A stretch of DNA of 64,000 nt from Sediminibacterium sp. FEMGT703S (lineage in GTDB: Bacteria > Bacteroidota > Bacteroidia > Chitinophagales > Chitinophagaceae): contig PGCO01000004.1 in the NCBI GenBank assembly GCA_002786355.1, forward strand, positions 93,297-157,296, given 5' to 3'. Below are positions 1 to 52,067 of this stretch, piece after piece. The position numbers and the translations under genes are program-made. How positions within the stretch are numbered: the stretch's first letter is position 1; each line of letters begins with the position of its first letter. A model generated the notes under the pieces. The model had not been told where the DNA came from and did not search any database. It saw nothing but the letters and a program-made list of their open reading frames with translations.

Positions 1-617
1 TTATCTGACCACCCGAATAAAAACCATCTATTGTTATATTCTTTTAGGAAATAAGGGCTAAATATAATTTGATAGGATTCGGATGCATAAAAGTGCTTGT
101 ATGTTATTTTTAAAACTTGCTTTTTTATTATTGAATTATACAAATCACCCAAGAAGTCAGAGCCAAGAACTGTTGGAGGGTTTTCAAATGCAATTACTGG
201 CATTTTTTCATTAGATCTCAACTTTATTTTATGCTCTAACCTTTGAACTATTCCTTCTATTTCATCTGCTATAGTAAAGCCTTTTATTTGTTGCATTATA
301 TCTACTACCTCTCTTAATCTTAAAACATCTTCTTCCTCAAGAGGAAGCTTATTTATTGAAAAATTGATATCCTCGTATATGTAATATACAGAAGTCCCTT
401 CTTTTACCGTATTTATAGGTGCGCCATACTCAGCTTGCATGTCGTTTAAATCATTTCTAATTTGGCTTAAAGAGATAGTGGTATTATTCCCACATTTTTC
501 TTCTAATTTTTTATTTACAACATCCAATAAATTTCTTTTTGACCATTTATGCAGTGTATTACGTAAGCATTCATCAATTATTTCAAAACGAACTCTTGCT
601 GCTTTATTTACTGGCAT
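1..617 (-). CDS. WYL domain-containing transcriptional regulator, N-terminal ~205 aa (gene runs off the window start)
   Basis: Own minus-strand translation from the ATG at 617-615: MPVNKAARVRFEIIDECLRNTLHKWSKRNLLDVV...KITYKHFYASESYQIIFSPYFLKEYNNRWFLFGWSD. It shows an N-terminal wHTH and the start of a WYL domain (RWFLFG). It is absent from the ORF track because it is open at the window edge. Confidence 0.75.
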   Translation of the reverse strand, partial: MPVNKAARVRFEIIDECLRNTLHKWSKRNLLDVVNKKLEEKCGNNTTISLSQIRNDLNDMQAEYGAPINTVKEGTSVYYIYEDINFSINKLPLEEEDVLRLREVVDIMQQIKGFTIADEIEGIVQRLEHKIKLRSNEKMPVIAFENPPTVLGSDFLGDLYNSIIKKQVLKITYKHFYASESYQIIFSPYFLKEYNNRWFLFGWSD

Positions 618-665
618 AACTGTTTTTCTTACTAAAGTACCGATTTCCTTTCTATCTATATATTC

Positions 666-719
666 AATTTATATATGTATGAATTTATATTTATTAGAAT
701 TACTTGCAAATAGGTTGCA
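666..719. promoter_or_regulatory. Candidate operator elements in the divergent WYL / 756..1097 intergenic region
   Basis: Direct repeat AATTTATAT at 666-674 and 682-690. Inverted repeat TGCAA-N5-TTGCA at 705-719. The region is AT-rich, so chance occurrence is possible. Confidence 0.25.
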
Positions 720-755
720 TAGTTCTACTTCAATTTTGATTTCAAATAGGGATTT

Positions 756-1097
756 ATGCAAAAAACACTTACAGTTGTATCAAAAGATGAGAAAACAGGC
801 TGGGTTGAATCATTTAGGTTCACTCATACAAGCCATTCTTTTACAAGGTCAGCACAAAGAGGTATTGATAGTTCAAAACTTTCTATTGCCTTATTATATG
901 GACAACCATTTTATAAGCAAGGTTTAATCTACTATGTTCTAGGGGAAAATAATATCCCAAGTAAATTAATGAATAATAAAGAGTCCTTACGAAATACTAT
1001 TGTTATTGTAGACGGAAAATCGGATACTATCATTACATGTTATCGTGCTAAAGATCCTTTTAAGCATATAAAAAGAAAGTCAAGTATTCTTAAATAA
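756..1097 (+). CDS. Small protein, DUF4258-like (putative toxin-type fold)
   Basis: 113 aa. The pattern SHSFTRSAQRGI...LLYG...IVIVDGKSDTIITCYRAKD resembles the H..R...R.I ... ITvY pattern of DUF4258. The call is made by eye only. Confidence 0.45.
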   Translation: MQKTLTVVSKDEKTGWVESFRFTHTSHSFTRSAQRGIDSSKLSIALLYGQPFYKQGLIYYVLGENNIPSKLMNNKESLRNTIVIVDGKSDTIITCYRAKDPFKHIKRKSSILK

Positions 1098-1113
1098 TAA
1101 ATTAATTACTATT

Positions 1114-1515
1114 ATGAAAATATATCACTTAGAAACTTTAATCAAATTTGGTGTTTATAATGGGAAAACTCTCCAACAAGTGATGAGTATTGATAAGCCG
1201 TATATTGAGTTTTGCTTAAACAAATTAGAACATTTTGTTATTACTGAAGAAACAATCAGAATGTATCAAATGATTAATCCCACATTTATCTTATCCATCA
1301 AAGCTGAAAATGCACTAAGGGAAAAGATAAAAAAGTTAAAAGACTTATTTGAACAAGAAGACGATAATGATTGGGATGAAGAAGATGGTAATGAACATCC
1401 AAAAGATAGTTATGGATCTAGTGGTACTAAATATGGATGGTATAATGGATTTAGTGATGATGTGATTGATGATGCATTTGAAGGTGATCCGTCGAATACA
1501 TGGAATGTAGATTAA
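1114..1515 (+). CDS. Hypothetical protein, ExoX C-terminal/DUF3820-like N-terminus and acidic linker
   Basis: Starts 16 bp after the previous gene. FGVYNGKTLQQV..DKPYIEFCL resembles the FGKYKGKTL..D..YL.W motif. It has the acidic tract EQEDDNDWDEEDGNE and the C-terminal DDAFEGDPSNTWNVD. Confidence 0.5.
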   Translation: MKIYHLETLIKFGVYNGKTLQQVMSIDKPYIEFCLNKLEHFVITEETIRMYQMINPTFILSIKAENALREKIKKLKDLFEQEDDNDWDEEDGNEHPKDSYGSSGTKYGWYNGFSDDVIDDAFEGDPSNTWNVD

Positions 1516-1856
1516 TTCCTAAACGCCCCATATTTATAAAAATCGGTCATCACTATTTTAGCACTCTGGTATTCTTTCAGTTCGTATTTTGGTGCAATAC
1601 CTTTTTCTCTCTGTTCCGACATTTCTTGTAAGCGTTTATAATAGGCTTTGTTTACATCAGTTAAAGTAAAGGTTGGTTCATCATCTAGTTTTAGTAAATG
1701 GTAGCACTTTGAGAGTGGGCGTTTATCTAAATTAGAAGTTGGCTGTGGAATGCTAGTCGTTTTTTCAGCTTTGACGGGCTCAGGCTTTTTCGATAGAATG
1801 TAGTCTACCAATCTTATCAATCCCGCTAAATAAATGATTCCCCAAATAGTAGACAT
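1512..1856 (-). CDS. Hypothetical protein with N-terminal hydrophobic helix and degenerate J-domain-like region
   Basis: 114 aa. The N-terminus IWGIIYLAGLIRLVDYIL is hydrophobic. CYHLLKLDDEPTFTLTDVNKAYYKRLQE resembles J-domain helices I-II but has no HPD motif. It is convergent with 1114..1515 (stop codons overlap) and divergent from 1918..2220. Confidence 0.45.
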   Translation of the reverse strand: MSTIWGIIYLAGLIRLVDYILSKKPEPVKAEKTTSIPQPTSNLDKRPLSKCYHLLKLDDEPTFTLTDVNKAYYKRLQEMSEQREKGIAPKYELKEYQSAKIVMTDFYKYGAFRN

Positions 1857-1917
1857 AAAACATTTTTTATTTATTCACAACCTTTCTTTCCGACAACCTT
1901 TTTTATAATTTGTTACA

Positions 1918-2220
1918 ATGATAATTAATTCTCTTTCAACCACAGAAACCTTACCCGAAATTTTTCAGGAAGTTCAAACCATTACTCTTGAACAATTAGA
2001 CATTGCTGGCCAAGTGATTCTACATTGTAGACATTATGGCTGCAATGCAGAATGTGGTAAATCAATCCGTTGCGAAATTAAATTGAATCCAGGAATTGCG
2101 CTGGTACCAGTTGACGGTGGTAATCCTTCCACCATATTGAACCGGATGGGCCTGGTGGAGAGGGATGGGTTATTCGTAATATCAAGCGATCTGCTACAGA
2201 TGTATATAAGCTCACTTTAG
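1918..2220 (+). CDS. Small Cys/His-rich protein, first gene of the four-gene module
   Basis: 100 aa with the motif HCRHYGCNAEC plus a further Cys. A truncated paralogue lies at 5199-5360. Confidence 0.5.
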   Translation: MIINSLSTTETLPEIFQEVQTITLEQLDIAGQVILHCRHYGCNAECGKSIRCEIKLNPGIALVPVDGGNPSTILNRMGLVERDGLFVISSDLLQMYISSL

Positions 2221-2330
2221 GCACTCATGCTTCTTGGGAGGGTGAAATAGACTTCTAGCCTTTACAAGCTTGTAGAAATCAAAATGGCTTATTGTGCCTG
2301 GTAATTTTACACAACAACAAAACAATTACC

Positions 2331-2966
2331 ATGAAACAAACAAAAACAATCTATCACTTAATTTTAGACAGAAGTGGTTCAATGATTGACTGCCTAGAAA
2401 ACACGATTAATGGATTTAACGAGCAGATTCATCGGATTCGTAGAATTAAAGCTGAATTTCCAGATGACGAAATGACTGTTGGTTTAACTATCTTTAATGA
2501 AGAAGTAATTATAAAATACCTGGCTTCCGACCCCCATGACGTCAGTCTTCTTGATTCACTTTCATATAAGCCCGGGGGGTCTACTGCTTTATTAGATGCA
2601 ATTGGTTTTACCGTCAAGCGAATTGAAAGTGAACTGGAACGTTCGAATAATATTCAGGATACCAGTGTAATTGTTGTGGTCATTACAGATGGTTATGAAA
2701 ATGCTTCAAAAATTTTTTCGATGCCAGAAATAAAATTAATGATTGCTAGGCTGGAGGAAACTACCAAGTGGAATTTTGCATTCATTGGTGCAACACTTGA
2801 TGCAGTTGAAGTAGCTAAAGCAATGTCAATTAAATCTAAAAACAGTTATTCTTTCAATAAAAATGAAATGGACTCTGTAGTTTGGGATAAGTTGAACCTT
2901 TCACTTTTAAGCTATAGCCAAAAAAAGAAGAATAAGCAATCCGACGATAATCTTTTCGGAGAATGA
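2331..2966 (+). CDS. von Willebrand factor type A (vWA) domain protein with intact MIDAS
   Basis: MIDAS residues are present: DRSGSM (DxSxS), GGSTALLDA (Thr) and VITDGYEN (Asp). I take the start at ATG 2331 (MKQTKTIYHL) rather than the upstream TTG at 2292. Confidence 0.85.
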   Translation: MKQTKTIYHLILDRSGSMIDCLENTINGFNEQIHRIRRIKAEFPDDEMTVGLTIFNEEVIIKYLASDPHDVSLLDSLSYKPGGSTALLDAIGFTVKRIESELERSNNIQDTSVIVVVITDGYENASKIFSMPEIKLMIARLEETTKWNFAFIGATLDAVEVAKAMSIKSKNSYSFNKNEMDSVVWDKLNLSLLSYSQKKKNKQSDDNLFGE

Positions 2967-3015
2967 AAACCATAGTTAATAGTATTCAATAATAATATAA
3001 AGCAATCGGATCCTA

Positions 3016-4164
3016 ATGAAAGTACATTTAATCAAAAGCAATAAACTAGACATTGAACTGTTTACAGACATTGTTGGTCTGTTAACTTCTATTCCGGGTC
3101 CTATTCAGTTTATTTATGATGAAAAGGATACAATAAATTATAACCAAGAATCTTTTTCTTCAATTGTGTATGAATCAGAAGAACAATTTGAAATTCTCAA
3201 AATGATGCAAATTGATTCACTTTATAATAAAGTATACCCATTAGAAATAGATACTGTTTCTTGGAAAACTATTTTTGACAAGTGCAATAAGTATAGAGCT
3301 AAAAAAAGGTTGCAGGAAGAGGATTTTGTTATTCTATTGACTGAAGTAGCTAATGAGAAAAACTGGTTTGCTGCACTCGATCCTGATAATTTATACAACA
3401 GCTTTGTACATGCTGATGATTGGGAACATTATATTGATTGCCAACCCCAATTTCCGATTGCCTATGAGGTAATTGCACAAATTCTTCATCATTACTCAAT
3501 TAAAGGTGGTGATGATTTCTTTAATGTATTTCATAATCAATCAATCGGATGTGTAAATGATTTCTGCACCAATAAAAGGGAAATCATCCTAAAACTGCGA
3601 ACAGCAGATATATGTATGGGCTGTATGACCCGGTTAAAAAAACAGATGCCTTTTTTAATGATCAATCATGCTTTGTCATTGTTGGAGTCTTTAAGGATTA
3701 AAATGCTTTTTTCTCAAAACTTTAAACAGCAGCTTCCGCCTAGCAAGCTTATCATTGATAGACAGTATTGTATATTTCTACCTGATTTTAATAATATTGA
3801 AATTAAACTTACCCCTTTAGAAAAAGCACTTTATATCTTGTTTCTATGCGATCCTCAAGGTATTTCCTTATCCCAACTTTGTGAGCATAAAGAAGAATTA
3901 TATACCATTTATGCTGCCCTTGCTAATACCGGTGACTTTAATGAAATGAGGGGTAGGATAGACGATATGGCTAATGCGCTTAGTTCGTCTGCATCCCAAA
4001 AGATCTCTAAAATAAAAAAGGTCTTTGAACTAAATATTGGAACCGAATTAGCGGCTCATTATTATATCAAGGGCGCTAATGGTGAAGAAAAGGGTATTTC
4101 ACTTGACAGGAACCTGGTTGAGTTTGATAGCAGTTTGCCAATACATGGCAAACACCCCCTTTAA
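3016..4164 (+). CDS. Uncharacterised 382-aa protein with a Cys4 cluster and a wHTH-like C-terminus
   Basis: Long ORF with no competing frame. It carries a CX3C-X16-CX2C cluster (GCVNDFC...ADICMGC). The C-terminal helical region LTPLEKALYILFLCDPQGISLSQL...ELYTIY looks wHTH-like. No family recognised. Confidence 0.7.
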   Translation: MKVHLIKSNKLDIELFTDIVGLLTSIPGPIQFIYDEKDTINYNQESFSSIVYESEEQFEILKMMQIDSLYNKVYPLEIDTVSWKTIFDKCNKYRAKKRLQEEDFVILLTEVANEKNWFAALDPDNLYNSFVHADDWEHYIDCQPQFPIAYEVIAQILHHYSIKGGDDFFNVFHNQSIGCVNDFCTNKREIILKLRTADICMGCMTRLKKQMPFLMINHALSLLESLRIKMLFSQNFKQQLPPSKLIIDRQYCIFLPDFNNIEIKLTPLEKALYILFLCDPQGISLSQLCEHKEELYTIYAALANTGDFNEMRGRIDDMANALSSSASQKISKIKKVFELNIGTELAAHYYIKGANGEEKGISLDRNLVEFDSSLPIHGKHPL

Positions 4165-4188
4165 TTTTACCTCCCTCAAATACATTCC

Positions 4189-5133
4189 ATGCAAACACTT
4201 AAAAACATTCTCGATGCCGAATTAGATCGGTTAATTAGTATCCAACATTTTCAAGAACCTGCGGTGGGTGTGTCTTCTGGTTTTAAGTATTTGGATAGGG
4301 CCATAAATGGATTTAGGCCACAACACTTATACCTCTTGAGCGCTGCTCCAGAGTCGGGTAAAACGGCGTTTTTGCTCAACCTATTATTATGCATTACCGT
4401 TAAAAAGAAAAATCCTGCTAAAGCCCTGTTTTATAGTTTAGACATTAGTGCGGCTGAAGTGGCGCAGCGTTTGTTGAGTTGTAATTCTGGGGTTACCATG
4501 GAGCATGTTTTTTATGGAACCACCAAGTCTGAAGTAATTGAAAAACTCTACATTGATGTGGATCAAATTAAAGACCTCTCTACTAATTTATTCATTGAAG
4601 ATTATCCTTCTTGCTCTATCGAAACCATACGTGCGCAATTAACCGAATTGAAAGCGCAAAATCAATTGCCTTCTATTGTGGTGATTGATAATATCAATCG
4701 CATTGCGGTGGAGGGTGATCCTACTCCTGAATCGGATGACTATGGGGTTATTCCTGCTTCTTTAATAGAGCAGTTAAAAAAGATTGCCATCGATTTTAAT
4801 ATTCCACTCTTGATTTCTCCTGAAACCAGTCCCCTTGATCCTGATGTTGAAACCGATCGTATGCCTCGCTTATACGTATTGCGTCAAAAGAATTTCAACT
4901 TACACTTAATTGATGTGGTGATGTTTTTGTTGATGCCGAATTACTATGCCGTTCCAACCGGGGAAGATGATATCAACCCCGGTCATGTTTCTAGAGCGGG
5001 ATATCCTTTGCCCAAAGGCTTTAGTGAAATGCACCTTCGAATTCCGCTCAATCGCTGCGGCCCTATTACCACCGTGTACTTCAACGCCAATATGGAATCA
5101 CAAACGATTATGGAGGATGTGGGGTATAATTGA
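4189..5133 (+). CDS. DnaB C-terminal domain-like (RecA-fold) ATPase without the DnaB N-terminal domain
   Basis: By eye it aligns with E. coli DnaB residues ~200-470. Shared elements are GFKYLDRAINGFRP, Walker A AAPESGKTAF, Walker B IVVIDN and NRCGPITTVYF (DnaB has QRNGPIGTV). The SLEM Glu is Asp here (SLDI), and the SQLNR motif is replaced by ISPETS. Confidence 0.8.
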   Translation: MQTLKNILDAELDRLISIQHFQEPAVGVSSGFKYLDRAINGFRPQHLYLLSAAPESGKTAFLLNLLLCITVKKKNPAKALFYSLDISAAEVAQRLLSCNSGVTMEHVFYGTTKSEVIEKLYIDVDQIKDLSTNLFIEDYPSCSIETIRAQLTELKAQNQLPSIVVIDNINRIAVEGDPTPESDDYGVIPASLIEQLKKIAIDFNIPLLISPETSPLDPDVETDRMPRLYVLRQKNFNLHLIDVVMFLLMPNYYAVPTGEDDINPGHVSRAGYPLPKGFSEMHLRIPLNRCGPITTVYFNANMESQTIMEDVGYN

Positions 5134-5372
5134 TTAGGTATTTATACTCTATAATTGTTAGTGTAGGTCTATGTATTTTTATAAAAATATTTTATTGGGA
5201 AATATTTCAAGAAAATAAAACCATTACTCTTGAACAAGTATATACGGCTGGCCAAGTGATTTTACATTGTACGCATTATGGCTGCAATGCAGAATGTACT
5301 AATCCTTCCATTTTATTGAACCCGATGCACCTGGTGGAGAGGGATGGTGTTTTCGTAATAGCCACCTTCTAA
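5130..5372 (+). pseudogene. Truncated paralogue of the Cys/His-rich small ORF
   Basis: 5199-5360 matches 1957-2181, roughly 85% by hand count. It has an in-frame ~66-nt deletion that removes GKSIRCEIKLNPGIALVPVDGG. The only available start is a TTG inside the gene-end repeat, and there is no in-frame ATG. Confidence 0.5.
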
Positions 5373-5481
5373 ACAAGCATATTCAAGCTATCCATGAAAC
5401 TAATTACAAAACAATCTGATTTTAGTAAGTTTACAAGGAAGGAAATCAAGTAAAATCTTAACAGTAATATATCATTTAAAT

Positions 5482-5721
5482 ATGAGCAGCATAAAAATAT
5501 TTGAAGAAAAAAAAGTGCGTAGCCAATACGATGCAGAGAGAGAGGGAAACGAGACGGTTACAAACTGTAACCAACTGAAACTGCAGTCTGAAGATGGTAA
5601 ATTTTATAAAACCGATGTGGGGAGTGTAGAAGATATTTACCACCCAAAAAAGAAACCAAAAAATAGATCTATACCAAGACATGGCAAAAACCCCTTTAAT
5701 TTTACCTCCCTCAAATATTGA
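5482..5721 (+). pseudogene. Bro-N / phage antirepressor-type gene fragment
   Basis: SIKIFEEKKVRSQYDAERE and GNETVTNCNQLKLQSEDGK match the N-terminal region of Bacteroidota Bro-N family proteins, with the intervening ~40 aa missing. The 3' end fuses to a copy of the junction between the 382-aa gene and the DnaB-like gene. Confidence 0.5.
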
Positions 5722-5723
5722 CC

Positions 5724-6093
5724 ATGCAAACACTCAAAACCATTTTCGATGCCGAGTTAGATCGGTTGATTAGTATCCAACATTTTCAAGAACCAGCAGT
5801 GGGTGTGTCTTCTGGTTTTAAGCGCTGCTCCTGAGTCGGGCAAAACGGCGTTTTTGCTCAACCTATTTTTAAGCATTACCGTTAAAAAGAAAAACCTACT
5901 CCTGAATCGGATGACTATGGAGTTATTCCCGCTTCTTTAATGGAACAGTTAAAAAAGATTGCCATCGATTTTAATGCCCCCAGGCTTTTCTGAAATGCAT
6001 ATTCGTATTCCGCTTAATCGCTGTGGTCCTATTACCACCGTTTACTTTACCGCCAATATGGAATGTCAGCTGGTGTATGAGGATGGGGTGTAA
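5724..6093 (+). pseudogene. Deletion-riddled remnant of the DnaB-like ATPase gene
   Basis: It consists of four collinear blocks matching 4189-4287, 4341-4416, 4720-4800 and 5010-5133 (about 85-93% identical). The reading frame is broken after the first junction (TGA at ~5836). Confidence 0.85.
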
Positions 6094-6103
6094 TTGATTG
6101 ATT

Positions 6104-6117
6104 AGGTATTAATACCT
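6104..6117. repeat. Perfect 14-bp palindrome AGGTATTAATACCT after the remnant stop codon
   Basis: The sequence is its own reverse complement and is identical to 7365-7378. The intact gene carries the degenerate form AGGTATTTATACTC at 5136-5149. Confidence 0.9.
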
Positions 6118-6190
6118 ATACTCAATAATCCAATAAAATCTGATATTCAATTAAAGGATAATCAATTAAACGCTTTTAAAATATTGGGTT

Positions 6191-7285
6191 ATGAAATCTA
6201 AAAGAAAGCAGTTGGGAAATGAAATTGAAAGAGTTGTCTTTCCATTGGCTGAGAATGTAAAAGAAATGCCTGATGGCTATATTTCTTTTGTAGATGAACT
6301 CAAAGGGTTTATTAAAAAAGAGAAGCTATCTACTATACTCCATGCCAATCAACGAATGATATTAATGTATTGGCATATTGGTAAGGCTATTCTTTCCAAA
6401 CAAGGAACTGAAGGCTGGGGTACAAAAGTAATTGATCGCTTGTCTGCAGACCTAAAAGATGCTTTTCCTGAAGAAACAGGATTTTCAACAAGAAACTTAA
6501 AATACATGCGAAAGTTTGCTGAATCGTGGGCAGACTTTGAAATTGTGCAACGCACCGTTGCACAAATACCTTGGCGAAGCAATATTACTCTATTAGATAA
6601 AATAAAAGAACCAGAATTACGGCTTTGGTATGCTCAAAAAACCATCGAAAATGGCTTTGGAAAAGATGTGTTAGTTTTTCAAATTGAAAGTGAACTACAC
6701 AAAAGGCAAGGCAATGCTGTTAGTAATTTTCTAGATACGTTGCCACCCTTGGAATCTGATTTGGCGAAACAATCTTTTAAAGACCCTTATATTTTTAATT
6801 TTTTAGGTAACGCAAGTCATATCATAGAAATGGAGTTGGAACAAAAACTCATAGACCATATTCAAAAGTTTCTACTTGAACTTGGACAAGGCTTCGCGTT
6901 TGTGGGTAGGCAGGTGCATTTAGAATTGGGGGACAGCGATTTTTACCTTGACTTACTTTTTTATCACATCAAGCTGAAGTGTTATGTGGTGATAGAATTA
7001 AAAACGGGCAAGCTAGAACCTGGCCATATAAGCCAACTTAATATGTATATGAATGTGGTAAACGATGCACTTTGTGGTAAAGACGACAATAAAACCATTG
7101 GCCTATTACTAGTAAAAGAAAAAGACAAAATAGTAGCTGAATATTCATTGGCGGGTGTAAATAATCCAATAGGGATTTCAAACTGGGAAAAAGACATTAA
7201 AAAATCCCTACCAGACAATCTTAAAAGTAGTTTACCAAGTATAGAGGAAATTGAAAACGAATTCGATAAAGATGAGGAATTATAG
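6191..7285 (+). CDS. YhcG-family PDDEXK nuclease domain protein (DUF1016)
   Basis: 364 aa. The N-terminal helical region (ILMYWHIGKAI...GWGTKVIDRLSADL...FSTRNLKYMRKFA) and the C-terminal nuclease core (DLLFYHIKLKCYVVIELKTGK) are typical of DUF1016. Confidence 0.85.
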   Translation: MKSKRKQLGNEIERVVFPLAENVKEMPDGYISFVDELKGFIKKEKLSTILHANQRMILMYWHIGKAILSKQGTEGWGTKVIDRLSADLKDAFPEETGFSTRNLKYMRKFAESWADFEIVQRTVAQIPWRSNITLLDKIKEPELRLWYAQKTIENGFGKDVLVFQIESELHKRQGNAVSNFLDTLPPLESDLAKQSFKDPYIFNFLGNASHIIEMELEQKLIDHIQKFLLELGQGFAFVGRQVHLELGDSDFYLDLLFYHIKLKCYVVIELKTGKLEPGHISQLNMYMNVVNDALCGKDDNKTIGLLLVKEKDKIVAEYSLAGVNNPIGISNWEKDIKKSLPDNLKSSLPSIEEIENEFDKDEEL

Positions 7286-7302
7286 GCCGATCAATTCCCA
7301 AT

Positions 7303-7378
7303 ATCTACCTTACCGCTAATAAGGAATCACAAACGATTATGGAGGATGTGGGGTATTATTGATTAGGTATTAATACCT
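7303..7378 (+). repeat. Third copy of the 3' end of the DnaB-like gene, with the palindrome
   Basis: TTACCGCTAATAAGGAATCACAAACGATTATGGAGGATGTGGGGTATTATTGATTAGGTATTAATACCT matches 5083-5149 and 6045-6117. It encodes ..ESQTIMEDVGYY*. Confidence 0.8.
7365..7378. repeat. Perfect 14-bp palindrome AGGTATTAATACCT (second copy)
   Basis: Identical to 6104-6117. The two copies bracket the YhcG gene. Confidence 0.9.
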
Positions 7379-7421
7379 GAATTTTTGAATTCCTTTTTTT
7401 GCAAATCCTTGTTCACTAACT

Positions 7422-7613
7422 TGTCGGAATTTCCGACATACCACTCAACATGGTGCTATAGAAGGAAAAACACAAGAAAAAGATGTGAAATATTACAATC
7501 TTGATGTAATCATTTCAGTAGGTTATCGTGTAAAATCGCCCCAAGGCACACAGTTCCGTATCCAGGAAATACGTTTATCTGAGCGGTTCTTCTATCAAAA
7601 AAATAGCCCATAA
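7422..7613 (+). pseudogene. RhuM family virulence protein fragment (A)
   Basis: Own translation: CRNFRHTTQHGAIEGKTQEKDVKYYNLDVIISVGYRVKSPQGTQFRI. YYNLDVIISVGYRVKS..GTQFR is the RhuM signature. There is no start codon and no N- or C-terminal parts. Confidence 0.7.
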
Positions 7614-7645
7614 ATTCTTTTGTTGGTGTATGAGGATGGGGTATG

Positions 7646-7708
7646 GATGAAAGTTCAACTGTTCGGAATTTCCGAACAATTGCCGATGATAGAAAACTAC
7701 GGTTCTAA
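7646..7708 (+). pseudogene. RhuM family fragment (B), different lineage
   Basis: Own translation: DESSTVRNFRTIADDRKLRF*. It resembles the ..VRKFRTTAADGK.. segment of RhuM proteins. It is preceded by a partial fourth copy of the DnaB-like gene end at 7622-7646. Confidence 0.4.
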
Positions 7709-7845
7709 CAACAGTTTAAATTGTTTAAACAAACAAAAAGTGTTAGAATAGATAGATTTGAATCTGCTTAATATTACTCTGAAAATGAAAAATTAGAACA
7801 ACTTCCGGGTTTGGCACGTTTTTACTTCCAAGTTTGGTATTTTTT

Positions 7846-7862
7846 CTTGTCAACTTGTCAAG
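7846..7862 (+). promoter_or_regulatory. Tandem direct repeat CTTGTCAA x2, candidate operator of the phd/vapC promoter
   Basis: CTTGTCAACTTGTCAAG lies 30 bp upstream of the antitoxin ATG. Type II antitoxins commonly autoregulate through repeats in their own promoter. Confidence 0.35.
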
Positions 7863-7891
7863 AAAATCCTAACTTTAACAAAAGCAGTATT

Positions 7892-8128
7892 ATGGAAACA
7901 CTAACTGTAGGGGATTTTAAAGCAAACTTCTCTGAAGTCCTAAAGAAAGTGCAGAATGGGGAAGAAATTGCTATTTCCTTTGGTAAAAAAAAGGAAATAG
8001 TTGCCAGACTTGTACCAGGCTCTGGTCAAAAAAAAGAAAAAAGGAAAATCGGCATTTTTGAAGGGAAAGGTAAAGTTGTCTTCAAGAATAACTTTTTAAT
8101 TACTGAAGAAGAATTGCTTGGCGCATGA
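7892..8128 (+). CDS. Type II antitoxin, Phd/YefM family
   Basis: METLTVGDFKANFSEVLKKVQNGEEIAISFGKKKEIVARLVP is a typical Phd/YefM N-terminus. Its stop overlaps the PIN toxin start (ATGA). I take the start at ATG 7892 rather than the TTG at 7811. Confidence 0.8.
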   Translation: METLTVGDFKANFSEVLKKVQNGEEIAISFGKKKEIVARLVPGSGQKKEKRKIGIFEGKGKVVFKNNFLITEEELLGA

Positions 8129-8532
8129 GTAACTATCTCTTAGACACTCATTACCTACTTTGGACTTTGGTAGATACCAAGAAGCTCTCTAAAAAAATTA
8201 AAGATATAATTGTTGATCCCGACAATACTATTATAGTTAGTTCAATAAGTTTTTGGGAAATTTCTTTAAAGTATTCATTAAGAAAATTAACGATTACTGG
8301 CTTTACTCCCGAGGAGTTACCACAAGCTTGCGCTGAAATGGGCTTTCTAATTGAACCCCTTTCCCCTATTGATAGTAGCAGCTATCATCAATTGTATCCT
8401 GCATATCATAAAGATCCTTTTGATAAAATGCTTATCTGGCAAGCTATGTCTAACCAATACACACTTATCAGCAACGACGAAACTGTAGCGAAATATAAGT
8501 CACTAGGTTTAAGGATAATTACCAGCAAGTAA
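8125..8532 (+). CDS. vapC: Type II toxin, VapC family PIN-domain ribonuclease
   Basis: The PIN acidic residues are in the usual context: YLLDTHYLLW, SSISFWEI, HKDPFDKMLIWQA and LISNDE. Confidence 0.85.
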   Translation: MSNYLLDTHYLLWTLVDTKKLSKKIKDIIVDPDNTIIVSSISFWEISLKYSLRKLTITGFTPEELPQACAEMGFLIEPLSPIDSSSYHQLYPAYHKDPFDKMLIWQAMSNQYTLISNDETVAKYKSLGLRIITSK

Positions 8533-8588
8533 GTTTCTGAAATTTTCACTAACTTATTCTCCTATATTTCTCATTTAATTGCATTCTC

Positions 8589-10475
8589 ATGAAAAAACTT
8601 TTCCTTGCCATTGGCCTGTTTGCATGCACGGCCGGCGCAACTAATTTAAAAGCACAAGACACGGCGGCTATTTATCGCAAGCTCGATTCTATTGCCGTGA
8701 TTGATCAAAAAGTAATGATGCCCATGCGCGATGGTATTCGCCTGGCTACCGACATCTATCGCCCAAAGGGCAATGGAAAATATCCAATTGTATTTTCTCG
8801 TACCCCGTATAATTTCAATACTTGGGTGGATGGAAAAATGACTACTCGCACATTGGAAGATGCGTATCAAGCAGTGAGTCGCGGTTATGCCTATGTAGTG
8901 CAGAACGAAAGAGGAAGATTTTTCTCTGAAGGTGAATGGGATATTTTAGGTACGCCCATCACCGATGGTTACGATGCCTTAGAGTGGATGAGTAAACAAG
9001 CTTGGAGCAATGGTAAAGTGGGTTTGATTGGCTGCTCTTCTACTGCCGAATGGCAGATGGCGGTGGCTTCTCAGAACCATCCTGCTTTAGCCGCAATGGT
9101 TGCGCAGGGCTTTGGTGCGGGTGTGGGTCGTGTGGGTCAATTCATGGAACAGGGTAACTGGTACCGTGGTGGTGCGCAACAAATGTTGTTCACGTCTTGG
9201 TTGTATAGTACGCAACATGATAAGCTTGCGCCGAAATTACCAATCGGTATTCAGCAAAAAGATTTACAGCGTTTGCAAAAGTTTTATGATATGGGTCCTG
9301 AATATCCAAGAGTAGATTGGGCGCAGGGATTAAGAACGCTACCGATTATAGACATCATCAAAAAAGCACAAGGTCCTGATGGTATTTATGAACAAATGGC
9401 GGCTCGCAAACCCAATGATCCAGCATGGTTCAAGGGTGGTCTTTATCACGATAATATGCCTATGGAAGTGCCTGCTTATTGGTTCGTAAGCTGGTACGAT
9501 GTTTCTTCTGCGCCAAATATTGCTTTGTTCAATCATGTGCGCAATGCAGCTAAAAATAAATCTGTTGCCGATAATCAATACCTAGTGATTGCCCCTGTGT
9601 TGCATTGCTCTTATAAGCGTGCTACCGAAAATACCATCGTGGGTGAGCGTAGTGTAGGTGATGCTCGTTTGAATTATGATGAACTTACTTGGGGTTGGTT
9701 TGATATGTTGTTGAAAGGTCAACAAAATGATTTTAAATCGGCTCAACCTCGTGTTCGTTATTATACAATGGGTTCAAACAAATGGCAACAGGCCGAGAGC
9801 TTCCCTTTACCGAATACCGAAATGAAGCCTTTCTATTTATCTAGTGCGGGCAAAGCCAATACCCGCAATGGCGATGGGGCTTTAACCATGATGCCTCCTG
9901 CAAAAGATATTCCTGATGCTTTCACTTACGATCCTATGAATCCGGTTACTTCTTACGGTGGTAATGTTTGCTGTACTGGAAACGCCGTGCAAGGCGGCAG
10001 CTTTGATCAATCCCAAATGGAATTGCGCAATGATATCTTAGTGTACACTTCAGATGAATTAAAAGATGGGGTGGAAGTGACCGGGTTCATTGAGTCTACC
10101 CTCTATGTTTCTTCTACTGGCTTAGATACCGATGTAACAATTAAATTGATTGATGTTCACCCTGATGGCAAAGCTTACAATTTAGATGAAACCATTCAAC
10201 GCTTGCGTTACAGAGAGGGATACGATAAAGAAGTGTTCATGGAAAAAGGCAAAGTGTACAAAGTCAATTTAACCCCAATGGTGACCAGTAACTATTTTGC
10301 ACCTGGTCATAAAATTCGCATTGAAGTTTCTAGTAGTAACTTCCCTCGTTTCGATCGTAACTTAAATACAGGTGGTAACAACTATGATGAAGCTACTGGT
10401 GTGGTGGTAGAAAATAAAATTCACCACTCTAAGCAGTATCCTTCTGTAATTAAATTACCCATCATTAAAAAGTAA
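8589..10475 (+). CDS. CocE/NonD family hydrolase (X-Pro dipeptidyl-peptidase S15-like), secreted
   Basis: Has a signal peptide. Motifs seen: [27 protein letters not shown] (nucleophile elbow) and the C-terminal [15 protein letters not shown]. Confidence 0.9.
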
Positions 10476-10476
10476 A

Positions 10477-10989
10477 TTATTTCAACGCGGAAGCAGGTAA
10501 GGTAAAGCCCATGCTTTCTGCACACCAATATACATTTACAATATAAAAACGGTCCTGGTCCTTAAACAGTTGAATACTATTAATTCCTCTGTTGGTACTT
10601 GGACCGTTTTCTGTTTCTCTTGTTTCATAAGTGCTGAATGCATGATACACTGTTCCAAATGAAACGGTTTCGCGTTTTAATTCTTTTTCGAAGAACCCTG
10701 TTTTGATGCGCGAACTAAACATGGTGATGTATTCATCTGGGGTCATTGTTCTATAGAGAAAATTTCCTCCTTCTATTTTACCTGTCGGAATTAATTTGGC
10801 ATCTTTTCCAAACAAATATTTAAATCTTTCCCAATCCCGTGGCTCGCCCGGTGCACCGCATATCACGTTGTACAAAGCAGCAATAATATTGTCTACACTG
10901 CTTACGTCTTTAGCGTATTTCTCATTCGATTGCGCTTGTACTAAACTTGTACCTAAACCCATTAGTAAAATCAATAAAAAGCGTTTCAT
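10477..10989 (-). CDS. Secreted hypothetical protein (NTF2/SnoaL-like guess)
   Basis: Signal peptide MKRFLLILLMGLGTSLVQAQ. It is about 170 aa with no clear motif. The fold guess is weak. Confidence 0.55.
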   Translation of the reverse strand: MKRFLLILLMGLGTSLVQAQSNEKYAKDVSSVDNIIAALYNVICGAPGEPRDWERFKYLFGKDAKLIPTGKIEGGNFLYRTMTPDEYITMFSSRIKTGFFEKELKRETVSFGTVYHAFSTYETRETENGPSTNRGINSIQLFKDQDRFYIVNVYWCAESMGFTLPASALK

Positions 10990-11375: not shown

Positions 11376-14052
11376 ATGGCAAAGTAAATACAAATTGAGC
11401 ACCTTTTGTAAACCCTTTGTTCACCCATATTTTGCCCCCATGTAATTCAATAATCTTTTTTGAAATGGCCAATCCCAATCCAGTGCCTTCTGGCTTTTTA
11501 AGGGTCTGGTTTTTGGCCTGAAAAAATTTATCAAAGATCAGCTCTTCCATGCCTGCATCTATGCCCTTGCCATCGTCGGTAATTTCAATCGTATAATCCT
11601 TTTCACCCTTCGAAATACTGATTTGAATAGTGCTTGAAGCAAACTTGATGGCATTGCCCAATAAATTTATGAATACCTGTTGTATTAAGTCGGCATCGGC
11701 CTGTATCATGGTGGGCCGCTGTGCCAATTGAATGGTTAAGCTTAACTGTTTAGCTTGTATGATTCCACTTAATGTGGCTGCCATATCATCCAACAATTTC
11801 CCTGCATTAATATCGGTAATGGTTAATTTTCTTCGGCCTGCTTCAAAATTTTCGAGGTTCAATACCTGGGTAATTAAATTACTCAATCGTACTGTTTCTT
11901 TAATGATGGCTTCTAAATACTGTTGTTGTTGCTCGGCTTCTAAATCGGGGTTGTCGAATAATATTTCGCTCAATGCCCTGATAGAAGTAAGCGGAGTGCG
12001 CAGTTCATGTGTTACCGTGTACAAGAATTCATTCTTCTGTTCGTCTATACTCAACAACTGCGTATTCATATTTTGCAATTGCTGCGTTGCTTTGGATAGC
12101 TCCAACGATTTTTTTCGGAGCTCTTTATTCATCTCTACCATTTGCTGGTTCTCATTCAAAATAGTTAAGACTTCTTCTATACTGATCTCTTCTTCTTTTG
12201 CTACAGTTTGTAACAATATTCTTGCAGATGCAACACCTACCACTCCTCCTAATATTCTTTCGGTGAATCCGATAATGCGCGGGTCGGCTACTAATTTTTC
12301 TTGCAAATTTATTTTATGCCTTTTGGTATAAGCGGATAATAAGGTTTCTGCTCTTTCCGCTCCCACAAAGCTTTTCAGCAGGTTGCGGATATCTTGCATT
12401 TGTGCGGTTCCCTTCCATACCAATCCGTTTTCTTGTATGGCTCCATGCTTATTGATATTGGTAAATATCTCTGCTTGGTATTGTTCCTGTGCTCCTTGTT
12501 GCGTGTATACCGATATAAAAACATATGCGGAAATATTCAGCAATAAACTCCAAAATACGGAGTGACTGATAGAATCAAATTCTTTTAATCCAAATAAATG
12601 TTGCGGGTGCAACCATTCAATTCCAAACAATCCATTTGCTAAAATGGATGCGGGTAAAAATCCATTGTTCACCATGCCGGGTAATACCAAGGTATAAAAC
12701 CAGATGATGAATCCTAAAATGATGCCTATGATAGCGCCTTGTTTATTGCCTTCTTTCCAATAAATGCCTCCAAACAAAGCAGGTGCAAATTGTGCTACTG
12801 CACAAAAGGAAATCAATCCTATAGATACCAAACTTTCTCCTTTTCCTAAGTTTAAATAATAGAGCAAGGCTAATAGCAATACCGCGCCAATACTGAGTCT
12901 TCGTATGTTTAGGATATTGCTTTGCAACGATACTTGTTTCCAGTTTTGGTTTTGTTGTGTGCGCAATAACAAGGGTATTACCAAATGATTGCTGATCATA
13001 ATGCTCAGTGCAATCGTTTCTATAATGATCATTCCTGTTGCTGCTGATAAGCCTCCGATCCAAGTGGTCATGGCCAACCAGCCTTGGTTTTGCATCATCG
13101 GTATAGAGAGTACATAATAATCTGCATTGACCGTATTGCCTTGCAGCAATAATCCGCCCATGGCGATGGGTAATACAAAAATATTAATGAGGATTAAGTA
13201 TAAGGGGAATAACCAGGTCGCCATTTTTAAATGTTGCTCCTGTACATTTTCTACGATGCTTACTTGAAATTGCCTGGGCAAAAAAACAATCGCTAACATG
13301 CCTAATACGGTCATGCTCATCCAACCTGAATAACCACTGCTTTCTTTTAAGGTCAATAATTTATTGTTTGCTGTTGCTGCTGTTTGCGAAAAAATATCGC
13401 CCATTCCATCAAATAAAAAATACGTGATATACACACCCACCATTAAAAAAGCCAAGAGTTTTACCAAGGATTCAAATGCCATGACGGTCATGAGTCCTGG
13501 ATGTTTTTCTGCGGCGTCTACACTTCTTGCTCCATACAATACCGTAAACACAAATAAGATGATGGTAGAAAATATGGCTATATAAACAGTAGATAAACTG
13601 GTGGGACTATCTTGCTGCAATACGGCTATGCTACTGGTAATCGCTTTAATTTGTAATGCGATATAGGGTATTACACCAAACACACAAAACAGGGTTACCA
13701 CCATTCCGATGGAGAAGTTTTTTCCATAACGCGTACTGATGAAATCGGCTATGGACGTGATTCTTAGGCTTTTGCTGATGGTTAATATTTTTCGTAAGAC
13801 GGGCCAAAATAATACCGCCATAATGGTGGGTCCTAAGTAGATCGTGATGAAATCGATTCCCGAACTGGCAGCTCTTCCTACACTTCCATAATAGGTCCAT
13901 GCGGTGCAATAAACCCCCATGCTTAATGCATAGATAAACGGATGGTTGACTAAATTTCTGCTGGTATTAATGGTCTTTTGTGCATATGATGCGATCGCAA
14001 ATAACAATACCAAATAGCCTAACCCGCAAATGATGATTAAGGTAGTGCTCAT
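11347..14052 (-). CDS. Sodium:solute symporter (SSF) domain-fused sensor histidine kinase (CrbS/CbrA-like architecture)
   Basis: About 520 aa of polytopic SSF-like membrane domain, followed by a coiled coil. H-box THELRTPL, N-box NLLGNAIKF, then TDDGKGI and GTGLGL. Confidence 0.9.
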   Translation of the reverse strand: MSTTLIIICGLGYLVLLFAIASYAQKTINTSRNLVNHPFIYALSMGVYCTAWTYYGSVGRAASSGIDFITIYLGPTIMAVLFWPVLRKILTISKSLRITSIADFISTRYGKNFSIGMVVTLFCVFGVIPYIALQIKAITSSIAVLQQDSPTSLSTVYIAIFSTIILFVFTVLYGARSVDAAEKHPGLMTVMAFESLVKLLAFLMVGVYITYFLFDGMGDIFSQTAATANNKLLTLKESSGYSGWMSMTVLGMLAIVFLPRQFQVSIVENVQEQHLKMATWLFPLYLILINIFVLPIAMGGLLLQGNTVNADYYVLSIPMMQNQGWLAMTTWIGGLSAATGMIIIETIALSIMISNHLVIPLLLRTQQNQNWKQVSLQSNILNIRRLSIGAVLLLALLYYLNLGKGESLVSIGLISFCAVAQFAPALFGGIYWKEGNKQGAIIGIILGFIIWFYTLVLPGMVNNGFLPASILANGLFGIEWLHPQHLFGLKEFDSISHSVFWSLLLNISAYVFISVYTQQGAQEQYQAEIFTNINKHGAIQENGLVWKGTAQMQDIRNLLKSFVGAERAETLLSAYTKRHKINLQEKLVADPRIIGFTERILGGVVGVASARILLQTVAKEEEISIEEVLTILNENQQMVEMNKELRKKSLELSKATQQLQNMNTQLLSIDEQKNEFLYTVTHELRTPLTSIRALSEILFDNPDLEAEQQQQYLEAIIKETVRLSNLITQVLNLENFEAGRRKLTITDINAGKLLDDMAATLSGIIQAKQLSLTIQLAQRPTMIQADADLIQQVFINLLGNAIKFASSTIQISISKGEKDYTIEITDDGKGIDAGMEELIFDKFFQAKNQTLKKPEGTGLGLAISKKIIELHGGKIWVNKGFTKGAQFVFTLPYEQESIGGR

Positions 14053-16121: not shown

Positions 16122-17537
16122 TTATAAATATACTTGTAATTGTAGCATGAATTCTCCTAAGGATCCATCCCTTAGTCTTTGTCCGTTTCTTAAATAGTAC
16201 AATGGTCTGGTACTATACTGCGGAGTAATTTTTGCATGGTGTCCGTCTAAGAAAAAATTAGCGCCTATATCAAAGTAATTTCCTGTTTGATCTAGGTAAT
16301 CAAATTTCTTGTAAGTGTACGCTGCAAAAGGTTGTATGCGAACCTTGGTGGTTTGGCTGGTTTTAGGCAATAATAATCCCGCTTGCGTGTACCAAATATC
16401 TCCGGTACCTACAAAAAAACGATTGTTTCCAAATCCATTGATACTGCGTTGGCTAGCCGCTACTGCGGGATCAAAGCCACTGGCTGGATTCATGATTCCT
16501 ACCGTTCTGATATAGTTGGGTCCAAAATTGTATTTGTAAAAAACACTGTACGCAGTTAATGCCATGTTTTTCTTTTTATCTCCAATAGGTAAATCGGCAT
16601 AAGCATCAATTCCAAATAAATTGATATCGTGTTGCGCGACGCTTCCGTTGCTATTCACGCTTCTGGTGCCTTTGGCTTGGTGATAAAATCCTGCCCCTAT
16701 ATTGAATACTTTTTTAGTGCCTACATAAGTGCCCACTCTAAAGGGTAATAGGTTAGATTCTTGGTCTAAGAATTGGTAGTCAAAATAGCCTTGTACAGCT
16801 GCTCTTGCATCTCCATTATTGTCTACTGCTACTTGACCTTTAATGGCGTCTACCGTTGGGTTAACATTGGTGGCAAAGGGTTTGTTTACGCTCAAACTGT
16901 AGTTGAGTTTACCCAATTTTCCTTTGGCATAAAATCCAAACTGTCTTACAAATTGATCACTCAATTCTACCAATGGCCAGTTAATTACCGGTGCATCAAT
17001 GGCCAAGAAATTCAAGGTGCTGGCACTACTCATTCTACTAATGCCCCACCAATAGTGTAAGCCACCACCAATATATACATTGTATTTATTGGCTTTCTTA
17101 GTGGTTGGGTTAACTGATGGAACCAACGCATATTCATTCCATACATCATGAAAGAAAATGCCTGGTTTTTTACCTGCACCATAAGCGCCTGTGCCTGTAG
17201 CACCAGCGGCTCCGCCTGTTGCAAATGTTTGGTTGTTGATGCCAAAATGCGCCAGTACTAAATAACGAGGAGTAATTTGTGCATAGGTCAAAATACGCAA
17301 ACGTCTTGCGCCTACATCCCAAGTGTTGTTACGAGTTTCGCCGTTTACTTGTGTACCTGGATTGTTGTTGATAGACCTTGCCCAAATTTGATTCCATACA
17401 ATGAAGCGAATGTATTTACTGCCCTCGGGGTTAAGGTTCAGTTTTAATCCTGAACCATACGCTTCACTGCCCTGGGCTTGTGCTATTTGCTGTACTAAAA
17501 GCAATCCTAGCACTGGAAGAAGTTTTTTTAATGACAT
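16122..17537 (-). CDS. Outer-membrane porin
   Basis: Has a signal peptide, alternating beta-strand-like composition, an aromatic C-terminal end (LQLQVYL) and Gly/Asn/Tyr richness. Confidence 0.7.
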   Translation of the reverse strand: MSLKKLLPVLGLLLVQQIAQAQGSEAYGSGLKLNLNPEGSKYIRFIVWNQIWARSINNNPGTQVNGETRNNTWDVGARRLRILTYAQITPRYLVLAHFGINNQTFATGGAAGATGTGAYGAGKKPGIFFHDVWNEYALVPSVNPTTKKANKYNVYIGGGLHYWWGISRMSSASTLNFLAIDAPVINWPLVELSDQFVRQFGFYAKGKLGKLNYSLSVNKPFATNVNPTVDAIKGQVAVDNNGDARAAVQGYFDYQFLDQESNLLPFRVGTYVGTKKVFNIGAGFYHQAKGTRSVNSNGSVAQHDINLFGIDAYADLPIGDKKKNMALTAYSVFYKYNFGPNYIRTVGIMNPASGFDPAVAASQRSINGFGNNRFFVGTGDIWYTQAGLLLPKTSQTTKVRIQPFAAYTYKKFDYLDQTGNYFDIGANFFLDGHHAKITPQYSTRPLYYLRNGQRLRDGSLGEFMLQLQVYL

Positions 17538-49999: not shown

Positions 50000-50018
50000 A
50001 ATTAAAATTACAAAAAAA

Positions 50019-52066: not shown

Positions 52067-52067
52067 A

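Follow-up and report, generated by a model that had tools for sequence, protein, structure and literature searches.

The 64 kb window of Sediminibacterium (Chitinophagaceae) DNA considered here, whose positions serve as coordinates throughout, contains a gene for a DnaB_C-like ATPase (4189-5133) that is followed by displaced copies of its own 3' end. The region 1500-8590 is probably the right-hand part of a genus-wide hotspot for a defence and toxin-antitoxin island that has no integrase, in which segments accrete at the left, decay and are reshuffled. The window and its relatives show directly that gene ends are repeated and decayed, that the cargo varies and the breakpoints are scattered, that hybrid copies exist, that the material has spread horizontally and that recombinase genes are absent. 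Everything past the stop codon of the ATPase gene is freely replaceable, and the locus is a clear and well-preserved example of a known process that implies no new recombination machinery.

The 3' end of the DnaB_C gene is repeated at 6031-6117, 7294-7378 and 7623-7650 (the features are collected in Table 1). Its last ~83 nucleotides (nt) occur again at 6031-6113 and 7294-7376 with 86% identity, and a 19-nt stretch at 6071-6089 has an exact match at 7624-7642. A preliminary description of this DNA had located four gene ends at or near these positions and had distinguished two types of tail, and both observations are sound. The a-type tail reads ESQTIMEDVGYN and the b-type tail ECQLVYEDGV, each followed by the stop codon, and the two differ at ~15 of 35 nt between flanks that are >90% identical. 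The cargo behind each copy is different, as had also been noticed, and consists of a copy of a Cys-rich small open reading frame (CysORF), the YhcG nuclease gene, RhuM relic A and RhuM relic B. Copy 3 had been regarded as a chimera with b-like flanks around an a-like core, but the same 'b-like' flanking bases are present in a-type alleles of the related loci (designated by L numbers) L003 and L014 and of the second L008 copy, and therefore no chimera is needed. A junction of the kind found in copy 4, where a DnaB_C end meets RhuM-B, is seen again in L002, L008, L009, L011, L019, L021, L026 and L027.

The second copy had been described as a further gene end, but it is really the last ~70 nt of a decayed DnaB_C gene (copy B) and thereby the tail of an entire upstream module that was repeated and has decayed, which extends over 5160-6117. 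In a gapped alignment 5663-6092 follows 4127-5126 save for three deletions, which removed 53, 307 and 209 nt; 5663-5822 corresponds to the end of orf382 and the start of DnaB_C, and 5818-5894, 5895-5975 and 5975-6092 to three more blocks of the gene. The microhomology at these deletion junctions amounts to 0-4 nt, which points to illegitimate recombination. The 'mini' allele, which carries all three deletions, is found in the window, L002, L011, L018, L019 and L025-L029. Other recurrent internal deletions of the gene include an in-frame loss of 189 nt in L008 (2987-3732; gene positions 232-420) and one of 102-106 nt that occurs both in a contig from the independent run X2 (window 4463>4570) and in L023 (2139-2548; 4467-4569).

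From left to right the gene remnant declines from an intact copy, accompanied by the vWA and orf382 genes, to ~370 nt, to 85 nt and finally to ~20-28 nt, and the cargo declines from an intact YhcG gene to a 183-nt and then a 39-nt RhuM relic. This monotonic decay fits a process in which each addition pushes the older copy towards the CocE hydrolase gene at the right border, and is what the accretion earlier suggested for the site predicts. The relics were recognised by comparison with intact genes of related loci, namely a Bro-N gene in L008, which has a Pfam Bro-N match, and a RhuM gene in L001 that matches Pfam Virulence_RhuM with E=2e-104. Both RhuM relics contain inverted repeats of 7-8 bp (TGTCGGA ATT TCCGACA at 7432-7448 and TGTTCGGA ATT TCCGAACA at 7661-7678) that code for (C/V)RNFR(H/T), and several RhuM truncation junctions (L001, L008, L009, L011) lie within ~20 nt upstream of this inverted repeat, near the start of the Pfam RhuM domain at residue 68.

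The DnaB_C gene has relatives in 11 loci from genomes, 16 from metagenomes and a few additional contigs, almost exclusively from Sediminibacterium. Isolates with the locus include Sediminibacterium sp. C3, S. salmoneum NBRC 103935 and strain TEGAF015. In every locus of sufficient length the gene stands after orf114, which is on the minus strand, and upstream of CocE, beyond which follow an MFS transporter and an acetyl-CoA synthetase. By tblastn, orf114 is found beside DnaB_C at 36-90% identity in L001-L004, L006, L010, L011 and L014, and CocE is present at 84-97% nucleotide identity in 18 loci, with homology that begins at 8566-8589, mostly at 8581. The flanks are constant, since 18 loci share orf114 and DnaB_C as left border and CocE as right border, and the content is variable, with ~14 classes of cargo. 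To the left of the gene lies defence content that also changes from genome to genome, including type I restriction-modification, Pycsar, AbiE, RmuC, an SLFN-like helicase and WYL regulators, with BREX in relatives of 43% identity. The island of L032 has been annotated completely, from the core gene ATE_C to CocE, and ATE_C forms the left flank in L004, L009 and L011 too. The G+C content is 28-40% in the island and 37-47% in the core.

What follows the gene was compared for 42 DnaB_C gene ends from ~30 loci, and the ~14 downstream classes that emerged bear out the earlier proposal that this junction is a hotspot where the cargo varies. CysORF' stands downstream of 10 copies, whose tails may be of the a or the b type. 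The other classes comprise YhcG, RhuM-A behind either tail, two or three RhuM-B junctions, HigB-like or HigBA genes, Fic with two junctions, HipBA with two junctions, a 45-56-nt internal relic of YhcG behind either tail, SocA, Bro-N and others. The points at which the sequences diverge are scattered from 0 to +34 nt past the stop codon, and are found after TAA/TAG, TAATT, TAATTGA, GATTA, AGGT, GGGTA, ATAC, ATACCT and ...ATAAT; in L006 and L014 divergence begins right at the stop codon. Displaced copies vary at both ends, with left ends at ~-85 to -19 nt from the stop and right ends at 0 to +34 nt. Where HipBA lies behind DnaB_C (L014 10935-11060; L022 600-660), repeated TATACCC-N-GGGTATA palindromes extend from the stop codon onward, and these are presumably operators that were imported with the toxin-antitoxin cassette.

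A second palindrome is associated with the gene ends themselves. The perfect 14-mer AGGTATTAATACCT occurs at 6104 and 7365 and nowhere else in the whole window, where allowing up to two mismatches gave no further match (chance expectation 0.41). It was correctly described as closing copies 2 and 3 in identical form, and the palindrome of copy 1 is indeed degenerate (AGGTATTTATACTC at 5136-5149), but the distance from the stop, given earlier as 8-11 nt, is actually 10 nt in copy 2 and 2 nt in copies 1 and 3. A 6-nt indel separates copies 1 and 2 and makes the palindrome of copy 2 perfect, and homology between these two copies runs on for 13 nt beyond it (TATACTC[T/A]ATAAT). Across ~430 kb of related loci the palindrome was found solely just 3' of DnaB_C gene ends, and it is therefore not a generic repetitive extragenic palindromic (REP) element or terminator; a genome-wide distribution, which had been considered, is seen neither in the window nor in these loci. 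The perfect 14-mer is present at 5 of the 42 gene ends (6 if one mismatch is allowed), and the conserved core is AGGTATTAATAC.

The nature of this palindrome bears on whether it could act as a crossover site. Rfam gave no match at E<=1 in window positions 1-9000, and the three gene-end units, folded for either strand, did no better than shuffled sequences (z -1.4 to +2.2), results that speak against an RNA element. A terminator role is likewise unsupported, as a consensus scan returned nothing at the palindromes and only in copy 3 does a T-run follow the hairpin. Because it is specific to its context and has no Rfam match, significant fold or terminator call, the palindrome is part of the conserved 3' flank of the DnaB_C gene and not a fixed crossover site. 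It may represent a weak hairpin or a putative protein-binding site. A phage or satellite origin finds no support, as no relative of the DnaB_C-like gene was found in viral contigs and the 12 exact viral matches to TGATTAGGTATTAATAC are all in unrelated contexts.

It had been suggested that cassettes are exchanged at the palindrome by site-specific recombination, which would require an integron-, Xer/dif- or res-like recombinase encoded elsewhere. Perfect copies do flank YhcG (6104 and 7365), the sequence is confined to these junctions in ~430 kb, its right edge lies no more than ~15 nt from where several cargo classes part, and palindromes resembling res sites are known to flank some chromosomal toxin-antitoxin operons (PMC13617665). 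Such an exchange is nonetheless very unlikely here, for the palindrome is incomplete or missing in around half of the junction classes, the breakpoints range over the 34 nt after the stop, the perfect form is restricted to a small minority of gene ends, the homology of copies 1 and 2 continues past it, and it has neither a family match nor a significant fold. Moreover, the geometry of a 28-nt dif-like site, with 11-nt arms and a 6-nt spacer, is not that of this palindrome, which has 7-nt arms and no spacer. No intI gene was found and no attC site was recognised, the latter by indirect means, as no dedicated attC model was used.

The search for recombinases was extended to the related loci. No recombinase domain was detected among the open reading frames (ORFs) of window positions 1-10500, nor among 20 further mid-size ORFs of the window, which are housekeeping or have no Pfam match, so that the original remark that no recombinase is visible holds for this set. 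No tyrosine or serine recombinase was present in the Pfam-annotated flanks of 10 kb on either side in L012, L013, L014 and L031-L033, where the search met only IS30-type (rve) transposases, in L012 and L033. The whole island of L032, from ATE_C to CocE, has no integrase, and ARAGORN predicted neither tRNA nor tmRNA genes for the window. The long related loci are likewise free of tRNA genes.

These results bear directly on the proposal that the repeats record tandem accretion of integrative elements, each of which would have used its own tyrosine or serine integrase to enter the 3' end of DnaB_C and would have supplied a replacement gene end. Reiterated gene ends of two types, each with different cargo, are just the pattern that such accretion leaves, but integrases are missing from the window ORFs, the annotated related loci and the complete island, and there is no tRNA gene. 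Repeats of a constant att length with a fixed crossover were not found, since the boundaries are inconstant on both sides, and copy 2 comprises an entire module in decay, not an att-sized repeat. Insertion by elements of the integrase type that target a gene's 3' end, as first envisaged, is therefore highly improbable.

A different question is whether any foreign DNA is involved at all. The units are arranged head to tail and unequal crossing-over is clear in L007, L011 and L019, so internal tandem duplication within one lineage, followed by divergence and decay, might be considered. However, over block 821-905 copy B shares 95-99% identity with the b-type genes and relics found in other genomes and only 85% with copy A, so copy B is not a recent duplicate of its neighbour, as judged from these alignments, and the stacking of at least two lineages that had been proposed is supported. 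The a and b tails differ strongly between well-conserved flanks, the cargo changes with each unit, and the relics diverge less between genomes than core synonymous sites do. The relic block 5357-6120 differs from those of L002, L011 and L019 by K=0.06-0.12, whereas the CocE dS for the same pairs is 0.43-0.57, which means that divergence in the non-coding relics is lower by a factor of 4-9 than at synonymous sites of the adjacent CocE gene. Neutral DNA that falls so far below synonymous divergence must have been exchanged horizontally, and internal duplication as the sole source of the array is unlikely.

The architecture of the island is also out of step with the relationships of the strains. 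The nearest relatives by CocE (L001, L009 and L021; dS 0.15-0.21) have different island architectures, whereas the more distant L002 and L019 (dS 0.57 and 0.43) share that of the window at ~94% identity. Deletion endpoints recur in varied combinations across the DnaB_C copies: the 307-nt deletion occurs alone in L009, in both L021 copies and in L022, and together with the 53-nt deletion in the second L008 copy. L007 carries the 209-nt deletion alone, with a 5' part that is 96% identical to copy A and a 3' part that is 98% identical to copy B, which is exactly the product expected of unequal homologous recombination between the two copies. In L011, L026 and L027 the mini copy alone has been kept, fused to RhuM relic B, and L019 is missing the YhcG unit. 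L017 has an intact b-type gene with YhcG directly behind it and 97% identity over 5974-6732, and likely represents the undecayed form of the second unit of the window.

The low divergence of the relics could alternatively mean that they are kept because they are useful, either as homology anchors for the capture of defence cassettes or as regulatory or RNA elements. The mini allele occurs in at least nine loci and is far better conserved than CocE synonymous sites, and the left ends of three displaced copies agree within ~6 nt. Recent horizontal transfer accounts for the same low divergence without selection, though, and the relics are frameshifted, have been lost in L003 and L014, and match no RNA family or stable fold, so that retention for a function is decidedly unlikely.

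The repeats could also be spurious, with strain variants from a metagenome joined in series by the assembler. The organism occurs in multi-strain wastewater metagenomes, and short-read contigs break at these repeats, but the repeats do not vanish in independent assemblies. The scaffold L002, from an independent metagenome-assembled genome, has the copies in the same order, 6070-8633 is bridged by contigs of three metagenome runs that are independent of one another, and 6070-8999 by one from a fourth, the megabase contigs L011, L026 and L027 contain the mini copy, and the isolate Sediminibacterium sp. C3 (L006/L033) has a displaced gene end. An artefact is hence extremely improbable. Alternative joints seen in metagenome contigs, and known from contig data only (4926>5974, 4463>4570, 5197>5357 and 5512>6107), are most simply explained as co-occurring strain variants.

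Accretion into an integrase-less hotspot would proceed by a mode of sequential displacement, of the type known as homology-facilitated illegitimate recombination. Segments from other Sediminibacterium lineages, each made of a DnaB_C copy and its own downstream cargo, would be added repeatedly at the left, with a homologous anchor in or upstream of DnaB_C and either an illegitimate or a second homologous junction at the right. Every such event would shift the previous DnaB_C copy and its cargo rightwards, towards CocE. The displaced copies would then lose function and shrink by many small deletions to the last 20-90 nt of the gene, and homologous recombination among the repeats and with other strains would subsequently reshuffle, fuse and delete units. 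The order of these events and the insertion step with one-sided homology are what we infer from the arrangement of the copies. A mirror image appears at the opposite border in L031, where a displaced 427-nt fragment of the 5' end of CocE (12601-13047), which includes ~58 nt of upstream region and is 93% identical to the resident copy (16778-17204), lies inside the island and is followed by other cargo, including Fic_N and a WG-repeat protein; this fragment mirrors the displaced DnaB_C ends.

Several points weigh against this account of accretion without a dedicated recombination site. The insertion step is deduced from its products, and the junctions scored for microhomology are those of the internal deletions. 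The left ends of window copy 3, the second L006 copy and the fourth L008 copy fall within ~6 nt of each other (window-equivalent 5063-5069), and 3-5 cargo classes diverge no more than ~15 nt from the right edge of the palindrome, so that the junctions are clustered more than a purely random breakpoint model predicts. No intact DnaB_C gene is present in L009, L010, L011, L021 and L022, and selection on the gene cannot always explain why junctions lie at its end. The search for an integrase covered window positions 1-10500, 20 further window ORFs and the annotated related loci, and it is in related loci that the left end of the island was read. In addition, the RhuM-B junction variants GTAATTGA, GTGGATGA, ATGGATGA and TTGAATGA differ at 3-4 of 8 nt beside well-conserved sequence. 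Taken with the coincident left ends and the divergence near the palindrome, these variants make it slightly possible that recombination involves the gene end itself. The specific form of this idea, that the last ~65 nt of the DnaB_C gene and the AGGTATTAATAC(CT) palindrome are a recombination or capture site for the CysORF/DnaB_C module or for an unlinked recombinase, is very improbable. If it were true, it would amount to a new integrase-independent system for the capture of defence cassettes, with the relics as its landing pads.

Table 1. Features of the island and its right border, in order along the window
Feature	Position	Strand	Evidence and remarks
orf114, conserved gene, left anchor	1512..1856	-	precedes DnaB_C module in nearly all related loci
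CysORF (Cys-rich small ORF), short 100-aa form	1918..2220	+	alignment against 151-aa form
vWA-domain protein	2292..2966	+	Pfam VWA E=1.2e-8; phrog_7371
orf382	3016..4164	+	382 aa; 3' end repeated at 5663-5703
Intact DnaB_C-like ATPase gene, copy A, a-type tail	4189..5133	+	314 aa; Pfam DnaB_C E=1.9e-32
Second, shorter CysORF copy, 80-aa ORF	5130..5372	+	5199-5360 against 1957-2181, 85-86%
Degenerate palindrome AGGTATTTATACTC	5136..5149		2 nt after copy A stop
Bro-N gene relic	5482..5697	+	residues 1-21 and 58-88 of 275 aa; tblastn against intact L008 Bro-N E=1.3e-24
Decayed DnaB_C copy B ('mini' pseudogene), b-type tail	5663..6093	+	ATG at 5724; frameshifted
Perfect palindrome AGGTATTAATACCT	6104..6117		10 nt after copy B stop
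YhcG/DUF1016 PD-(D/E)XK nuclease gene, intact cargo	6191..7285	+	Pfam YhcG_C E=3.3e-60; PADLOC PDC-S02 E=1.4e-138
Displaced DnaB_C 3' end, a-type (copy 3)	7294..7378	+	stop 7360-7362, perfect palindrome 7365-7378; 86% repeat
RhuM relic A	7419..7601	+	residues 69-114 and 152-163 of 344 aa; tblastn against intact L001 RhuM E=3.5e-18
Displaced DnaB_C 3' end, b-type (copy 4)	7623..7650	+	exact match over 19-21 nt, joined to RhuM relic B
RhuM relic B	7643..7681	+	residues 64-76 only (13 residues)
Phd/YefM-like antitoxin and PIN-domain toxin, last cargo before core	7811..8128 and 8125..8532	+	Pfam PhdYeFM_antitox, PIN
CocE/NonD-type hydrolase (Peptidase_S15), right border	8589..10475	+	Pfam Peptidase_S15, PepX_C

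The DnaB_C-like protein consists of the C-terminal RecA-like domain alone, and its PDB matches are limited to residues ~155-430 of DnaB chains. It is not a replicative DnaB helicase, as it scores 114 bits against the TIGR00665 cut-off of 385 and its 314 residues lack the N-terminal domain. The gene has a dN/dS of 0.09-0.24 against its orthologues, values that indicate purifying selection where it is intact. A CysORF precedes the DnaB_C-only ATPase even in relatives of 43% identity (L012 9377-10945; L013 2648-4136), where the pair adjoins BREX genes, and the two may represent an uncharacterised two-gene module of defence islands, to judge from this conserved neighbourhood. In its full form CysORF has 151 residues and a motif of ILHCxHxGCxxEC; it has no PADLOC or Pfam match, and the AlphaFold model of the 151-residue protein is unusable (mean pLDDT 32). 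Since 151 residues is the usual form, the window CysORF at 1918-2220, which is missing ~37 residues and has a frameshifted C-terminus in the alignment, is probably decayed.

The vWA and orf382 genes represent an insertion between CysORF and DnaB_C that is present in the window, L008, L018 and L019 and absent from L001, L002 and L003. No match to orf382 was found in Pfam, PADLOC, PHROG, NCBIfam or PDB, and orf114 gave none in Pfam, PADLOC or PHROG. PADLOC returned nothing for DnaB_C, CysORF, vWA, orf382 or orf114, and its matches are limited to YhcG, as the candidate defence gene PDC-S02, and a WYL protein. YhcG and the Phd-like/PIN toxin-antitoxin pair are the only intact cargo in the window. 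To the left of orf114 lie a WYL-domain regulator on the minus strand (1-617), which is cut by the start of the window, and the gene of a small protein whose C-terminal domain is ExoX-like (1114-1515), and this part of the island varies between genomes. Elsewhere in the window, in its housekeeping part and unrelated to the island, an adjacent pair of Exo_endo_phos paralogues and an adjacent rhomboid-family pair are found at 48896-51143 and 51143-52910 on the minus strand.

No description of this Chitinophagaceae locus was found in the literature searched, although parts of its behaviour are familiar from other systems. Genomic islands are known to accrete in tandem at the 3' ends of tRNA, tmRNA or protein genes by means of tyrosine integrases. 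The reiterated gene ends between blocks of foreign genes are shared with such islands, but here there is no integrase, constant att repeat or fixed crossover, and one of the 'repeats' is a whole decayed module. Integrons build arrays of cassettes between attI and attC sites with the help of IntI, and Xer/dif modules are bounded by 28-nt dif sites. Both resemble the present locus in their one-directional single-gene units, which are separated by a short and partly palindromic repeat and of which the newest is nearest the anchor. Unlike those systems, no IntI or Xer gene is nearby, the repeat consists of a coding gene end with a 10-14-nt palindrome, and the junctions vary. A deletion bias in bacterial pseudogenes was reportedly described by Mira, Ochman and Moran in 2001, and here, too, non-functional copies shrink as pieces of 50-300 nt are deleted at junctions where microhomology is slight or absent. 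What differs from ordinary deletional decay is that one decayed allele is common to genomes with a core dS of ~0.5, and this allele has therefore been passed between lineages and not only inherited.

The closest parallels lie with arrays that grow without an integrase. For the effector-immunity arrays of the Vibrio cholerae type VI secretion system (T6SS), a homologous anchor with an illegitimate far junction has been proposed (Kirchberger et al. 2017, PMC5361080), and that paper cites the same displacement model for the C-termini of Rhs and contact-dependent inhibition (CDI) proteins (Jackson et al. 2009, as cited there). These arrays and the present locus have in common an upstream anchor, a string of displaced acquired modules, old 3' ends downstream, no integrase and later homologous reshuffling. 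Here, however, a DnaB_C-like ATPase takes the place of a toxin whose C-terminal domain varies as the anchor, the repeat is the extreme gene end and not a conserved core before a variable toxin tip, the cargo genes are defence and toxin-antitoxin genes unrelated to one another, and no retained 'immunity' logic accounts for the persistence of the old pieces.

Toxin-antitoxin islets that are devoid of mobile-element genes have also been proposed to integrate through homologous recombination in the core genes beside them (PMC13617665), and integrase-less defence hotspots are represented by the core defence hotspots of Pseudomonas aeruginosa (PMC10250203) and the variable defence locus of Streptococcus suis (PMC5398294). 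Like these hotspots, the Sediminibacterium locus has a fixed site, conserved flanks, strain-specific defence and toxin-antitoxin systems, no mobile hallmarks, eroded remnants and homologous turnover. It differs in that the resident module is inside the island, where its multiplied and decayed copies record the order of the additions.

In defence islands that have no mobile-element genes, gain and loss are mostly deduced from patterns of presence and absence. The present locus is an unusually readable record of such turnover, with its stacked decayed copies, its deletion endpoints that serve as markers and its hybrids that mark crossovers. It could provide a natural model in Bacteroidota with which to measure how much one-sided (illegitimate) insertion, homologous replacement and deletion each contribute. 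It draws attention, too, to the uncharacterised pair of Cys-rich small protein and DnaB_C-only ATPase, which is subject to purifying selection where intact and is conserved within defence islands.

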